The position numbers were made by a program, and so were the translations under genes. DNA of 64,000 nt from NCBI GenBank assembly GCA_048886685.1, contig JBHLKM010000005.1, positions 42,958 through 106,957 of the forward strand, written 5' to 3'. Positions 29,976 through 57,933 of this stretch are shown in pieces. Numbering within the stretch: the stretch's first letter is position 1; each line of letters starts with the position of its first letter. Source of the DNA: Candidatus Hodarchaeota archaeon. Lineage in GTDB: Archaea; Asgardarchaeota; Lokiarchaeia; Sigyniarchaeales; SOKP01. The notes under the pieces were generated by a model. That model had not been told where the DNA came from, searched no databases, and worked only from the letters and a program-made list of their open reading frames with translations.

Positions 29976-31634
29976 TTATTTTATCTTTGCGTAGATATCT
30001 TTATTTCTATCAATCTCTTTAAGAATTCTTCTTCCTTCTTTATTCGATAATGATAGATTTATTTCACTTTTTCTACTTAAAGAACCTGTAAATATTTCTT
30101 CTTGATCAGCAAAGATAATAACATTTTGACTGGCATATGTAGGTGCAGCCCTTAAAATAATTCTATCTTTCCTTACTTCAAGGTCAAGGTTAATTCTTTC
30201 TTTCTTTGATTTACTAGTCCGATAAGTGGATAGATCAGCATATTGATCGGGTCTAAATTTTGATCTTTTAGGTGTTATTGGATTTATTACAATATCCTGG
30301 CCAAATGAATAAATTTCGAATTCTAAGTTGCGAGTTTTGTAATCCCTTACTTCTACTACAGGTCTAGCTAAATCTTTATCCCTTAAACCCGAGGGAACTT
30401 TAACAGTCATTTTAATGATTAGTACACTTGAAATATCTCCACCTTTTATAAATATTATTGTGTCAATGATAGAAGGCAACATTCCAAGTTCTATACGTCC
30501 TATGAACCTTTGGATTGCATCAATTGCAGAAGAGGAGTGAACAACACCAACCATCCCAACGCCAGAGAGACGAAAATCTGCATAAATTTCGAAATCTTTG
30601 GTAGTTCTAACTTCATCAAAGATCGTAAAATCTGGTCTTACAAGCAGGAGAATATCAGCAGAGTTCTCAAGATTACCTTCTAATTTAGTATATTGAGTGA
30701 TTTCAGGTAAGACTTGTAAGTCTCTTACACTTTCTAATGTTTTAACGACTTTATTTTGGCTTAAATAATGGTTTGCTAATGCTGCACAAAAAGTACTTTT
30801 CCCCGCTCCTGGAGAACCACATACAAGGATACCTTCTGCCTTTTGTAATCTTTTTTGTAATTGGGTGTCAATAGAATAATCGGATAATTTCAAATTTACA
30901 AGTGGTCGAACTGCTGTTATCTCAACATCATTAGAAAATGGGGGCCTGGTTATTACTATTCTAAACTCTCGTAATTGAGCTACTACAGCACCAATTTTCT
31001 CAATTTCTATAAAAGAGTGATCATCTTCTCTAACATTTTCGATTATTTCAAGAGCAATATCTTCAATGAGCTTTGGAGTGATAATTTCATTGTTAATTTT
31101 TTCCAACAACCAATTACCAGGCGAACCTCTCTTGGCATATGGGGGTAGATTCTTTTTGAGGTGAACACTCATAGTTTTATCATCAAAATAATCTAGTAGC
31201 TTAAGAGAAAGTGGTTCTTTAGGTCTATAGATTCCTCTTTCTTTTACGTAAAAAACATCTAATCCTTCAAAAATCCCTACATCACCCTGAATTCGATCAG
31301 CTGTTATTAATATTGCGTTATTATTCAGTGTAGTTTCTCTTATCAGAGCATCAAGTTCTCCCCCTGGCGCCATTTTTATTTCTTCTCTAGTAGGACGATT
31401 TCCTACGATTTTTAACTTTATTTTATTTTCTTTATTTAATTCACGTAATGACTTTAGAACATTTAAACCAAAGAATCCAATTTCTTTGTGAATATTTGTT
31501 CTGTACTCGATTTCTGCAATTACAATATTAGGTATTAAAATTTCTGGTTGTTCCCCCAACTCACCATTATCGATTAAATCAAGGATTAAGCCATTAAATA
31601 TTACAGAGGTATCACAAACGAATTTATCTGACAT
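29976..31634 (-). CDS. PINA-type PIN/VapC-domain ATPase
   Basis: N-terminal PIN (VCDTSV, GELDALIR, LITAD), TMSVHLK, Walker A GSPGAGKST, LLVRPDFTIFDEVR, DLARPVVEVRD. Confidence 0.92.
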   Translation of the reverse strand: MSDKFVCDTSVIFNGLILDLIDNGELGEQPEILIPNIVIAEIEYRTNIHKEIGFFGLNVLKSLRELNKENKIKLKIVGNRPTREEIKMAPGGELDALIRETTLNNNAILITADRIQGDVGIFEGLDVFYVKERGIYRPKEPLSLKLLDYFDDKTMSVHLKKNLPPYAKRGSPGNWLLEKINNEIITPKLIEDIALEIIENVREDDHSFIEIEKIGAVVAQLREFRIVITRPPFSNDVEITAVRPLVNLKLSDYSIDTQLQKRLQKAEGILVCGSPGAGKSTFCAALANHYLSQNKVVKTLESVRDLQVLPEITQYTKLEGNLENSADILLLVRPDFTIFDEVRTTKDFEIYADFRLSGVGMVGVVHSSSAIDAIQRFIGRIELGMLPSIIDTIIFIKGGDISSVLIIKMTVKVPSGLRDKDLARPVVEVRDYKTRNLEFEIYSFGQDIVINPITPKRSKFRPDQYADLSTYRTSKSKKERINLDLEVRKDRIILRAAPTYASQNVIIFADQEEIFTGSLSRKSEINLSLSNKEGRRILKEIDRNKDIYAKIK

Positions 31635-32236
31635 TATTCACCATTCTCTCCTTTATTTAAAATTTGAAATTTTTTAACACTGTAATATATGGGCTTGCTT
31701 AAGCGATCTACTGTTGCCACAATTAAGTCTTTCCGCGAGCTTAATGCTACTCGAGACATCTTATCCAAATCTCTCAACTCAATTGGATCTCCTTCAAATA
31801 CGGGGAATATTAAAAATTTAGCAGTGTCTTTCTCAAAATCAGCTCCTCTTTTATAAACACGAAATTCTATCCCATTTCCGTAACCGGTTCGAACGATATA
31901 TCCTCTTTTTCTTAGATCCATATAAATGATATATTTATGCCATAGTCGATTGTCAAATTGTGTAAAATAAGTTAATAAACCTTCAAAATCGTATAATGCT
32001 TTATTTTTATCGTTATCTTCCCATAATAATATTCTGTTTCTTTCACTGAGGAGCAATACTTCAATAGCGTCAAAAACTAAAATATTCTGTTTATCATTAT
32101 TTTTTTCAATAGTTCCTATATAAGAACCATTATAAAATTCTTCAATTCCTTTACTATCACTTATAATAACTTTATCCTTTTCGATTATTCCCTCTAACTG
32201 AATCTTTTCAGTTTTCTCATTTGATTCTTCAGTCAT
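31634..32236 (-). CDS. endA: tRNA-splicing endonuclease subunit, probably non-catalytic (beta/structural)
   Basis: YMDLRKRGYIVRTG, FRVY, RVALSSRKDLIVA; the usual catalytic Tyr (GxKYG) and His (after the FRVY loop) are not evident; TAATG overlap with PINA. Confidence 0.8.
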   Translation of the reverse strand: MTEESNEKTEKIQLEGIIEKDKVIISDSKGIEEFYNGSYIGTIEKNNDKQNILVFDAIEVLLLSERNRILLWEDNDKNKALYDFEGLLTYFTQFDNRLWHKYIIYMDLRKRGYIVRTGYGNGIEFRVYKRGADFEKDTAKFLIFPVFEGDPIELRDLDKMSRVALSSRKDLIVATVDRLSKPIYYSVKKFQILNKGENGE

Positions 32237-41565: not shown

Positions 41566-43239
41566 ATGGATTTTATTTATAAGGAAGAATATTGGTATAT
41601 AAGTTCATTTATAAACACTAATCTTGTAGATGGTAATGTGAAAAGTGAAGAAATTAGGATAAAAATTAAAGAATGTCTAAATAATCTAAAAAAAGAAGAT
41701 CTTTATTATAAAATACGAGATGAAATTGGCGATGATATAATAGACATGGCGAAAAATATTTCATTGTCTTGTAAATGGGAACCTTATCTGGAGAGTTTTC
41801 CCTATGAGGATGAAAACAGCCAAAAAGAATATGATACCTTAGGATTTTTTCAGTTTGATGTAGAATATTATAAAGAAAATCCCTCAAAAAAACAAAATAT
41901 TAGATCGAACTATATTCAACAGATCCCACAAATAATAAATACTTTTTTAATGGATTATTCTGCAAAGGAGGAAGCCAAAGGGATTCTTTTTGATTTAGAG
42001 AGCCCTATGTATATTTTTATTACTTCAGATAAAGTAGAGCCTCAAGAAATCTCTTGGACACAAGAAAATATTGAAAAGTACAAAAAAATTATTGGTTATT
42101 GGACAGAGGTATATTCAGGGCAATGGGAAGATTATTCAGAGGTCCTATACGATAAACGTATTGAAAATAATTTATCTAATCGTTTGTCAGAACTACATTT
42201 TATTCGTAGAAATTCTGGATTCATATATATGGCAGAAGATAATTATACGAATTTCTTTAACTCTTATATGAAAGAATATGTTTTAACTCCTACTCCAAAA
42301 ATGAGAGCAGTTCTATTTGCACTACGATCTATAAATGAGTCATTAGATTTACTATTCTTGAAGACTGAATCAGAAGAATTCAAGGATGTTGAAACTATTG
42401 AAAGAAAAATTCGAAATCTTAGATTTTTAAGGGGTTTAATTCAAACTAAATTAAGCTTGGTATATAATGAATTGGATTATAATAGAAGACAACATTTTAC
42501 GAATGTATTAAAACATTTACTTAATGAGTTTGAAATTGATAGAATAGTTTCCCGAATCAATGAAAAATTTGATATTATTTATGATTCAATGCAAGGATTA
42601 TATGTCAAAAAAAATGAAGAAATTCAAAAAAGAACTGAAAAAGGTCTTAATCTCCTAAATCTACTTTTTGGAGCGGGAATTTTAGCAGACCTTGGAAGTG
42701 TTATTATGATTGCATTAAGTTTACAAGAAGGGGATCTTAGTTCAATAGTGTTAAATAGTATAATTGCAATAATAATTAGTGGAATTTTAATTACTACAAT
42801 TATATTCAACGTTTATATGAGAGTTCAAGTTAATAAGGCAGAAATTTTACATGCTGTGGATGCCGTTATTGAAGATGGAAAAGGAAATGTGGTTTTAATC
42901 AAGCGGAAATATCCTCCTTATCAAGGTTTTTATGCATTACCAGGCGGTTCTGTTGAAAAGGGTGAAAAACTAAAAGAAGCATTGGTAAGAGAAGTTAGAG
43001 AAGAAACTAATTTAAATGTGGATGTAACAGAGAAAATTGGAATTTACGATAAGGAGGGAAGGGATCCTCGAGGTAATGTTCATAGTACTGCTTATAAGTG
43101 TATTGTTCTTGGAAATATTTCTGAGATGCAAAATGGTGAAGAAACGGTAGAAGTAAAACTTTTTTCAAAAGAACAGGTAAAAGATATGGAATTAGCGTTT
43201 GATCATAAGGAAATGCTAAGAGACGCTAAATTCATATGA
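41566..43239 (+). CDS. CorA/DUF155-like helical + 2TM protein fused to a C-terminal NUDIX (ADP-ribose pyrophosphatase-like) domain
   Basis: Long helix FEIDRIVSRINEKFDIIYD running into two TMs; NUDIX box GGSVEKGEKLKEALVREVREET, GRDPRG, LAFDH. Confidence 0.75.
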   Translation: MDFIYKEEYWYISSFINTNLVDGNVKSEEIRIKIKECLNNLKKEDLYYKIRDEIGDDIIDMAKNISLSCKWEPYLESFPYEDENSQKEYDTLGFFQFDVEYYKENPSKKQNIRSNYIQQIPQIINTFLMDYSAKEEAKGILFDLESPMYIFITSDKVEPQEISWTQENIEKYKKIIGYWTEVYSGQWEDYSEVLYDKRIENNLSNRLSELHFIRRNSGFIYMAEDNYTNFFNSYMKEYVLTPTPKMRAVLFALRSINESLDLLFLKTESEEFKDVETIERKIRNLRFLRGLIQTKLSLVYNELDYNRRQHFTNVLKHLLNEFEIDRIVSRINEKFDIIYDSMQGLYVKKNEEIQKRTEKGLNLLNLLFGAGILADLGSVIMIALSLQEGDLSSIVLNSIIAIIISGILITTIIFNVYMRVQVNKAEILHAVDAVIEDGKGNVVLIKRKYPPYQGFYALPGGSVEKGEKLKEALVREVREETNLNVDVTEKIGIYDKEGRDPRGNVHSTAYKCIVLGNISEMQNGEETVEVKLFSKEQVKDMELAFDHKEMLRDAKFI

Positions 43240-43333: not shown

Positions 43334-43898
43334 ATGATAATTATACCAAGTCCGGAAACCGGAAAAGAACCTCAAATTCACGATTCTGCTTACATTGCTC
43401 CCACAGCTGTCATCATCGGAGACGTAATAATCGGAGAAAATTCAAATGTTTGGTTTGGTGCAACTATTCGAGGAGATTGGGGCTCAATTAAAATTGGAAA
43501 AAATACTAGCATTCAAGAAAATGTTACCATTCATATTGAAGCAGGAAGTTCTGTAACTATAGGGGATGATTGTATTATAGGTCATCATGCAAAGATGTGA
43601 AGGTCTTACTTTACTCTGCAGAATGATTCATGGACCTTGTACAATAGAAAATGGCTGTGTTGTCGGAATTGCATCAAATGTATTACACCAGTCAAAACTT
43701 TGTGAAGGTTCTGTCCTTGCGGCAGGAGCAGTGCTCTTAGGCAAAGAGATCCCTCCTAGAAGCCTGGCTGTTGGAATTCCCGCCTCGGTTAAAAAAGAAG
43801 GAATTTATAAGGGGAAACTTGAAGGAACTAAAATATCCAAACTCTATACAAAAAAAGGTCAGACTTTTAAACAGTATTTTAACCAAAATTCATCATAG
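43334..43898 (+). CDS. Gamma-carbonic-anhydrase family (YrdA/Cam-like LbH) protein interrupted by a 31-nt insert; join(43334..43592,43624..43898) gives 177 aa
   Basis: AYIAPTAVIIGDV.IG..S.VWFGA.IRGD, IQEN.TIH, IGHHA|MIHG.C.I, LAVGIPA; the two tracked ORFs (43334..43600 and 43587..43898) are the two halves. Confidence 0.85.
43593..43623 (+). other. Candidate archaeal BHB-type mRNA intron (31 nt) AGATGTGAAGGTCTTACTTTACTCTGCAGAA
   Basis: Contains an in-frame TGA and shifts frame; removal restores GHHAMIHG; flanked by a relaxed BHB (outer ATC/GAT, helix aTGC/GCAg, bulges AA|A and AA|T) with an internal hairpin. Confidence 0.65.
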
Positions 43899-43932: not shown

Positions 43933-44673
43933 CTATTTTGAGCAAAAACAACTTTCATTCTTAACTATATCTATAATATTAAACCTTAAATCTATTAAAT
44001 TCACCATTAAAACTTTATTTTCAAGATTAGGGAGACCTAAGGCTGTTTTTATTACTTCTAAAGCTTCTAATGTGCCTAAAATACCAGGAGTTACGCCAAT
44101 TACCGGTAATGGTCCTTCTTCTGGAGGAACTTCTGGAGGTTCTGAAAATACACATTGATAACAAGCAGTCTTTCTTGGATTAATTGTGATAATTTGTCCA
44201 TAAAAATCTTTGATCCCTGCAATAACACATCTTAAATTATTTTCAATAGCTATCTTGTTAACTAGGAATTTTGTTTTAAAATTGTCACTACAGTCAACCA
44301 CAAAATCATAATCTTTTTCTTTTAGATATTTCTTAATCGATTCTTCATCAATATAATCTTTATAAACGTTAATTTGAACATCTGAATTAAGTTTTGATAA
44401 TACATCTTTGGCAGAATTTACCTTATCTTTACCAATTTGAGATTCATTATAGAGAATTTGCCTTTGTAGATTTGAAATATCCAAAATATCATTATCTATT
44501 ATTGTTAATTGATTAATCCCTGCAGCTGTTAAATACAGTGAAAAAGGCGATCCTAAGCCTCCGCAACCTATCTGAAGGATTTTCAGCTCAGAAATCTTTT
44601 CTTGACCTTTTTCCCCTATTACGGGAGATATAATTTGACGCGAATATCTCTCCTTTTGCCTTTCAGTTAGAAT
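43933..44673 (-). CDS. ThiF/MoeB/HesA-family E1-like enzyme (UbaA-like); probable ATT start at 44673
   Basis: Upstream of the tracked TTG (44484) the frame encodes LTERQKERYSRQI...GQEKI...IGCGGLGS...LTAAG; then SNLQRQ, DCSDNF, CYQC, GVTPGILG, CFC. Confidence 0.9.
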   Translation of the reverse strand: MLTERQKERYSRQIISPVIGEKGQEKISELKILQIGCGGLGSPFSLYLTAAGINQLTIIDNDILDISNLQRQILYNESQIGKDKVNSAKDVLSKLNSDVQINVYKDYIDEESIKKYLKEKDYDFVVDCSDNFKTKFLVNKIAIENNLRCVIAGIKDFYGQIITINPRKTACYQCVFSEPPEVPPEEGPLPVIGVTPGILGTLEALEVIKTALGLPNLENKVLMVNLIDLRFNIIDIVKNESCFCSK

Positions 44674-57548: not shown

Positions 57549-57755
57549 TCTATATTTTTAATCTAATGAAAATAAATCAGCATAACTATAAAAAGTAGAC
57601 ATTAAAATTCTATAAAAAAAATTGTGATTAAAAATGAATAATAAATTTGAAAAGTGTGAAAGCAACTTTACCTTCCACTCTGATTTCTTATGTATATTGA
57701 AATTTGAATTTAATCATATTCGAATAAGAATATATTTAAAAAAGGGAAATAAGTG

Positions 57756-57933
57756 TGGAGGGGGTGAGAATTTCTACTGCCTTCGAGGAGACAAGCAATA
57801 TTCGAACTCACGAATTAAGGCTCTTTATGGTAACCTTAAAGAGTGGCCTTTGCCACTGGATCTTAAGTCCAGCACCTATAGTCTTGACCCATTTTGGTGT
57901 AAAATGGCTTTGACCAAACTCGGTAACCCCTCC
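57756..57933 (-). tRNA. trnL: tRNA-Leu(UAA) with three introns (57878..57909, 57815..57844, 57770..57800); CCA not encoded
   Basis: Spliced 85 nt: GGAGGGG TT ACCGAGTTTGGTCAA|AGGT G CTGGA CTTAAGA TCCAG TGGCAAAGGCC|TTC GTGAG TTCGAA|T CTCAC CCCCTCC A; all stems pair and each intron has a BHB/BHL motif. Confidence 0.93.

Follow-up and report, generated by a model that had tools for sequence, protein, structure and literature searches.

A predicted tRNA-type intron in a carbonic anhydrase gene of an Asgard archaeon, and like inserts in other genes of its genome

A gene of the gamma carbonic anhydrase (gamma-CA) family in this Asgard archaeon is interrupted by 31 nucleotides that are very probably an archaeal tRNA-type intron within a gene that codes for protein, removed from the mRNA by the tRNA endonuclease EndA and the ligase RtcB in the manner of the crenarchaeal cbf5 intron. 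In the mechanism that we propose, the gamma-CA pre-mRNA would fold into a relaxed bulge-helix-bulge (BHB), a two-subunit EndA would cut after the second base of each bulge (between 43592 and 43593 and between 43623 and 43624), and RtcB would join the exons, rebuilding the AUG of Met87 and yielding a 177-aa gamma-CA with all three metal-ligand histidines. On unspliced RNA, ribosomes would stop at a TGA within the intron after 88 codons. We envisage a single gain followed by retention: the intron would have entered the loop of a hairpin formed by exon sequence, one that intronless relatives already possess. Folding in vivo, cleavage by EndA, ligation and a role for the stop are steps that we infer from sequence. 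Like-shaped inserts in further genes suggest that these archaea probably splice many unrelated mRNAs with their tRNA endonuclease and ligase and keep gaining introns.

The interrupted gene and its relatives

In the window, by which we mean the whole stretch of 64,000 nucleotides that was analysed, the gamma-CA-family gene consists of an 88-codon frame that starts at 43334 and a second frame that ends at 43898. The two halves match positions 6–83 and 87–170 of a single gamma-CA model of 172 positions, and each half scores below the NCBIfam equivalog cut-off. Removal of 43593–43623 fused the fragments into a 177-aa gamma-CA with an intact GHHAMIHG motif and reunited His84 with His89, reproducing what the earlier note had proposed; the sequence and coordinates of the insert were also as described there. 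We found that removing 43591–43621 or 43592–43622 gives the same 177-aa protein, and owing to an AA repeat homology sets the intron borders only to within 2 nt. By contrast, removing 29 nt (43594–43622) gives a product that stops after 87 aa, a stop that had been claimed before.

Exon 1 (43334–43592, forward strand) holds codons 1–86, including those of His67 and His84, and the A of Met87. The predicted 31-nt BHB-type intron (43593–43623, forward strand) contains an in-frame TGA at 43598–43600, an inner stem (43594–43602 with 43609–43617) closed by a 6-nt loop, and the 3′ strand of the central helix (43618–43621). Exon 2 (43624–43898, forward strand) runs from the TG of Met87 through His89 to the stop codon. 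The joined protein contains His67, His84 and His89, which by comparison with Cam and Cap we take to be the usual metal-ligand positions, as well as Arg46, Asp48, Gln61 and Asn63. With its hexapeptide beta-helix, three histidine ligands and RxD and Q-x-N motifs, the 177-aa product is, judged by sequence, a member of the Cap/YrdA-like gamma-CA family and a putative enzyme. An intronless orthologue matches the solved gamma-CA structures PDB 9qev (1e-36) and 1v3w (2e-33), and named homologues come from Lokiarchaeota, Promethearchaeota and other Asgard groups. The same genome encodes three further gamma-CA-like genes.

To determine how the insert is distributed, we compared orthologues, which are present in 41 of the 52 genomes of the genus. 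Eight of these 41, including the focal one, have a short first frame, and in all eight species an insert separates the A of the Met87 codon from its TG; the other 33 orthologues are uninterrupted, so that most relatives have the intact GHHAMIHG-type gene that had been predicted. An insert at the same site is also found in seven JGI metagenome contigs. Altogether we count 14 distinct variants; twelve have a length of 31 nt and two a length of 30 nt, and the 31-nt variants share 19–27 of 31 bases with the focal insert. The 31-nt form shifts the frame and the 30-nt form does not, and the in-frame TGA lies at the same place in both, which means that only excision repairs both forms. Insert variants are also carried by Logan contigs from several DNA runs. 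Their presence there and in independent assemblies shows that the insert is not an assembly error, in keeping with the check for an artefact called for earlier. A single contig lacking 31 nt at the insertion site was considered as evidence of splicing and set aside; it derives from DNA sequencing and most likely represents an intronless relative. Full-length proteins, which could have represented spliced cDNA, were also sought; none turned up inside the carrier clade, and the best match had 84% identity.

The carriers form a single clade nested among intronless genes in a DNA tree (support 98/91), and again in a protein tree that includes the closest database hits (95/89), suggesting one gain. 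In a tree of the neighbouring moeB gene, the carriers were not recovered as one clade. Vertical descent of the intron among its carriers is likely. Close intronless genes, such as L033, already possess the exon helices described below, which is consistent with an intron that landed in the loop of a pre-existing exon hairpin. L033, L037 and L043, all close intronless relatives, have a second gamma-CA copy in tandem just downstream.

None of the 14 joined frames contains another stop or frameshift. Among carriers, the 5′ half has a dN/dS of 0.08 and the 3′ half one of 0.06, with a mean dS of 0.9–1.0; the corresponding values among intronless genes are 0.13 and 0.20 (simple counting method on ungapped codons, with saturated pairs left out). 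These low values indicate that both halves are in use, and the relaxed selection that would have spoken against splicing was looked for and is absent.

Downstream of the gamma-CA gene lies a MoeB/UbaA-like E1 gene (43933–44673, reverse strand) whose conserved N terminus (RYSRQ, GxGGLG) extends upstream of its first ATG, GTG or TTG. A GGTGA word lies a few bases before the ATT at which this frame opens, which makes an AUU start likely; an intron as the cause of the missing N terminus was ruled out, as the frame is open up to an ATT. On the upstream side, a gene at 41566–43239 (forward strand) encodes a 557-aa protein that combines an extended soluble part with two probable membrane helices and, at the C terminus, a Nudix domain of the ADP-ribose type, and is divergent from a quinolinate-synthase-like gene.

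A conserved hairpin and competing explanations

The predicted pre-mRNA hairpin spans 43579–43637 (forward strand). It comprises two exon–exon helices (43584–86 with 43625–27, and 43579–83 with 43633–37), a 4-bp central helix whose 5′ strand, 43587–43590, pairs with 43618–43621 (an A.G mismatch, then U-A, G-C and C-G), and two bulges of 3 nt, 43591–43593 and 43622–43624, assigned by geometry. Outer helices, central helix and bulges are all present as the earlier note had claimed. The inner stem needed correction: the GA/TC pairing proposed there belongs to the energy minimum, and the conserved stem is the unbulged register from 43594:43617 to 43602:43609. A strict BHB, with four standard pairs between two 3-nt bulges and flanking helices, was not found, as the central helix consists of standard pairs only in L039, where the first pair is A-U rather than the A.G of the other 13 variants. 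What we observed is a relaxed BHB, with homology-defined borders that fall after the second base of each bulge. Group I, group II and spliceosomal introns were ruled out: the insert is only 31 nt long, has the ends AG..AA and has no Rfam match.

Folding of the focal hairpin alone is modest (z −2.0) and its minimum-energy state is not a BHB; what places the hairpin above chance is the comparison across species and not the single fold. Across the 14 variants, 87% of cells are paired in the proposed structure, compared with 30–43% in registers slid by 1–3 columns. Five inner-stem pairs change on both sides, so that the structure is kept by compensatory change, and the covarying stems that had been expected are all found in one clade. 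The covariation score exceeded those of all 500 of 500 shuffles, although the relatedness of the sequences can inflate it. The three standard pairs of the central helix are kept in all 14 variants (with G-C changed to G-U in three), and the central and outer helices are mostly invariant and consequently less informative. The inner-stem pair adjoining the 5′ bulge forms in ten variants; in the focal genome, two mismatches adjoin this bulge.

A43592, on which the AUG of the spliced product depends, is invariant in all 14 variants, even though as part of an unspliced codon it would specify K, N, R or I, and its neighbour 43593 varies; the 3′ bulge is AAU in 11 variants and AUU in three. Carriers are close to uniform at synonymous sites that take part in pairing (Gly83 in 13 of 14, His84 and Pro91 in 14 of 14), and the same states occur in 9, 23 and 6 of 37 intronless genes, respectively. 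The unpaired His89 codon, by contrast, varies 8:6 among carriers. Related sequences inflate such codon counts as they do covariation, and the pattern used to find the seven metagenome contigs itself fixed the codons of His84 and His85; the eight GTDB species came from a protein search that used no DNA pattern, and on their own they have the same near-fixed sites.

These observations bear on four other explanations. The strongest of them is a split gene that is never spliced, in which the 5′ half would end at the TGA at 43598–43600, translation would restart at the ATG at 43623, and the two polypeptides would assemble into one beta-helix. The last intron base recreates an ATG (11 variants) or a TTG (three) in frame with the 3′ half, both of which are possible starts, and a split gene would likewise predict the invariant TGA (14 of 14) and purifying selection on both halves. 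It gives no reason, however, for an invariant A43592 inside a junk codon, and it leaves unexplained the 3-nt bulges, the fixed synonymous sites in the exon helices and the pairing that the intron strand keeps with exon positions 43588–90 through G-C to G-U changes. The restart codon would lie directly behind a hairpin, with the only Shine–Dalgarno-like word about 20 nt upstream inside the stem, and the like-shaped inserts in uvrB and pfk (see below) have no start codon at their 3′ border. A beta-helix coil broken between two metal ligands also seems structurally unlikely, and we regard a split gene as improbable. Still less can be said for a pseudogene or an assembly artefact, which we hold to be very improbable. 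The DNA does contain a stop and a frameshift, and the three other gamma-CA-like genes could cover the function; but dN/dS is 0.06–0.08 and no other lesion has arisen in 14 variants diverged to a dS of up to about 3, and the recovery of the insert from independent assemblies and several DNA runs refutes an artefact.

The hairpin could also be cut in a 29-nt register (43594–43622), or in both registers, with alternative cutting serving as an off switch. What sets this register apart is that 43591 pairs with 43617, and 43587 with 43624. It has a perfect 4-bp helix in seven of the 14 variants, including that of the focal genome, and nearest-neighbour energies favour it in every variant (−14.6 versus −8.9 kcal/mol in the focal genome). 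In the other seven variants, however, its extra pair is A.A, U.U or A.C, and in the focal genome its 5′ side is an internal loop and not a 3-nt bulge. In no variant does its product have an open frame, a stop always following after a few codons, and cutting at 29 nt as the only outcome cannot explain selection on exon 2. The broken pair, together with the repair of A.G to A-U in L039, weakens the caveat that the earlier note had attached to this register, and we give it little credence as an alternative. Cutting at 29 nt may perhaps occur as a side reaction, which we consider unlikely and which would be compatible with splicing in the 31-nt register. Counting against splicing in that register, the energy minimum of the focal hairpin corresponds to neither register.

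Ribosomal bypassing or frameshifting over the insert, of the T4 gene 60 or byp type, is the remaining alternative. The gamma-CA insert resembles bypass elements in two respects: its hairpin holds a stop only a few codons past the junction, and the gap measures about 30 nt. We found no matching take-off and landing codons; the only copy of GCA, at 43618–20, has GAA TGA behind it. Nor can one simple frameshift accommodate the 31-nt variants as well as those of 30 nt, which are in frame, and decoding of this kind appears to us highly implausible.

Splicing machinery and inserts in other genes

Splicing of a relaxed BHB would require a suitable host enzyme, and we found genes for a hetero-oligomeric EndA in this genome. 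A structural, beta-like subunit without the catalytic histidine is encoded in the window (31634–32236, reverse strand), and a catalytic subunit with Tyr, His and Lys present is encoded on contig C18 (L031:1453-2049, reverse strand). The catalytic subunit is closest to that of Aeropyrum pernix and shares its loop with a KPR motif, the lysine of which gives A. pernix EndA its broad specificity (PMC3241643). Judged from these sequences, the host EndA would be a two-subunit enzyme with a loop of the broad-specificity type. The gene for the ligase RtcB is intact in the genome. At 29976–32236 (reverse strand), the gene for the structural subunit overlaps the next gene by one base, possibly forming an operon; the protein encoded by that gene has a PIN domain and an ATPase domain and looks PINA-like by eye.

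To ask whether other genes are interrupted in the same way, we compared the focal genome with a 0.8-Mb sample (24%) of a relative, G005, without using any motif, an approach that misses first exons shorter than about 15 codons. This revealed nine distinct frame-breaking inserts in the focal genome, five of which fit a BHB at their homology-defined borders: those in the gamma-CA gene, uvrB (29 nt), an alpha-mannosidase-like gene (30 nt), pfk (30 nt) and cdhA (34 nt). The chance of such geometry is 1.7% per site and up to about 8% when alternative borders are allowed. The other four inserts (18, 18, 27 and 48 nt) and two of three in G005 gave no BHB fit and look like gene junctions or weak alignments; the remaining G005 insert, 31 nt in a GHMP kinase gene, fits a BHB. 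By contrast, when the genome was scanned de novo for BHB motifs that, once removed, fuse long frames, hits were no more frequent than with excisions 1–2 nt longer or shorter, which means that the motif alone does not find these introns and that homology is needed. The genome scan suggested by the earlier note thus fails when based on the motif and succeeds when based on homology, and the BHB-shaped inserts in four more genes support an extension of putative splicing to further mRNAs of the lineage.

The further inserts likewise lie in recognizable protein motifs. The uvrB insert (L097:1914-1942, forward strand; 29 nt) has four central pairs, interrupts the YYDYYQPEAY motif and is missing from six relatives. 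The cdhA insert (L100:1681-1714, forward strand; 34 nt) interrupts the PICDMCCLC Fe-S motif and is also missing from six relatives; it has no outer helix adjoining the bulge in a simple register and is bulge-helix-loop-like. In pfk there are two inserts (L099:1117-1146, 30 nt, and 1432-1462, 31 nt; reverse strand), which are missing from three relatives with a match. Both split an Asp codon after its G, in a GGD motif; the central helix of the second pairs, and its inner stem is unpaired in a simple register. The insert in the alpha-mannosidase-like gene (L098:1676-1705, reverse strand; 30 nt) is in frame, contains a stop, lies in an HWDREW motif and is missing from G005. The pfk, cdhA and GHMP kinase inserts have a G.A at the helix position of the gamma-CA A.G, and the four inserts checked in the focal genome have a stop 3–5 codons after the junction. 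Of the species with the gamma-CA insert, the five checked for uvrB and cdhA lack the inserts in those genes, and the three checked for pfk lack both pfk inserts, which indicates that the gains differ in age. Scaling from the four non-focal genes gives, very roughly, 15–20 such introns per genome relative to G005.

Known introns, significance and a tRNA control

The closest parallel is the cbf5 pre-mRNA intron of Crenarchaeota, which is 16–44 nt long, has an unconventional BHB and has been confirmed to be spliced by cDNA (Yokobori 2009, PMC2738675; see also Watanabe 2002, Yoshinari 2006). The predicted gamma-CA intron (30–31 nt) shares with it a short length, a position in coding sequence within a conserved catalytic motif, a codon split after its first base, a host with a hetero-oligomeric EndA, and presence in one clade but not in its relatives. 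It differs in its Asgard host, in the gene concerned and in having counterparts in several unrelated genes per genome where cbf5 is one gene, and it is a prediction from DNA comparison.

In Asgard tRNA genes, repeated gains of BHB introns have been described together with a two-subunit EndA (bioRxiv 10.64898/2026.10.13.758758). The preprint does not contain the word ‘mRNA’ and states that splicing of its new introns awaits proof in an Asgard cell (10.64898/2026.10.13.758758). Those non-canonical introns (see also Marck and Grosjean 2003) resemble the gamma-CA intron in their length near 30 nt, BHB boundaries, repeated recent gains and two-subunit EndA, but sit in tRNA genes and not in a protein-coding gene. 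Haloferax volcanii HVO_1309 has a BHB intron in the 5′ UTR of its mRNA, and its cleavage by EndA was confirmed in vitro (Schwarz 2020, PMC7714728). Unlike the gamma-CA intron, it breaks no reading frame. The EndA of H. volcanii is a homodimeric enzyme. In eukaryotic HAC1/XBP1, a protein endonuclease and a tRNA ligase remove a short, frame-shifting mRNA intron (26 nt in XBP1), as proposed here for gamma-CA; IRE1, however, cuts at stem-loops and is not a tRNA endonuclease acting at a BHB, and its splicing is a regulated stress switch. Tocchini-Valentini reportedly predicted archaeal mRNA introns in 2011. Our literature search, with most subscription journals outside it, found no paper on Asgard mRNA introns, and in the literature searched archaeal splicing inside coding sequence is confirmed only for cbf5.

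If our interpretation is correct, current annotation treats core genes spliced by EndA (gamma-CA, uvrB, cdhA and pfk) as pseudogenes or fragments and would thereby distort metabolic reconstructions. The closest prokaryotic relatives of eukaryotes would have a protein-catalysed, non-spliceosomal system of genes in pieces, with introns placed inside conserved motifs of core genes and carrying early in-frame stops, at which ribosomes translating unspliced RNA would halt. In such a lineage, gains of mRNA introns could be dated and put to the test close to where eukaryotic introns and ligase-dependent mRNA splicing originated. As a test case the gamma-CA locus would serve well: its hairpin is short, 14 variants of it occur in nature, close relatives lack the intron, and the two registers lead to different predicted products.

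The window also contains a tRNA-Leu(UAA) gene (57755–57933, reverse strand) that can be found only when all three of its introns are removed, at 57909–57878 (32 nt, D-loop), 57844–57815 (30 nt, variable arm) and 57800–57770 (31 nt, T-loop). Both ARAGORN and Rfam miss the gene at 57933–57755, and a pattern search for another plausible Leu(UAA) arm found none. In the T-loop intron, the central helix ends in a G.A that adjoins an AAU bulge, and the cell must splice this 31-nt intron despite the mismatch, making the tRNA an internal control. The likeness to the mRNA insert noted earlier holds for the 31-nt length, the G.A and the AAU bulge but not for the position of the mismatch, which in the tRNA precedes the 5′ bulge, at the central helix's inner end, and in the mRNA precedes the 3′ bulge, at the outer end; the two positions are related by two-fold symmetry. 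Elsewhere in the genome there are many tRNA introns of 28–32 nt, according to a rough census with unreliable borders. Unlike the fast-changing mRNA intron, the D-loop intron of tRNA-Leu is nearly identical in most of 20 matching genomes of the genus. It repeats the exon word GGTCAA, and its longer forms in G062, G028 and G072 look nested.
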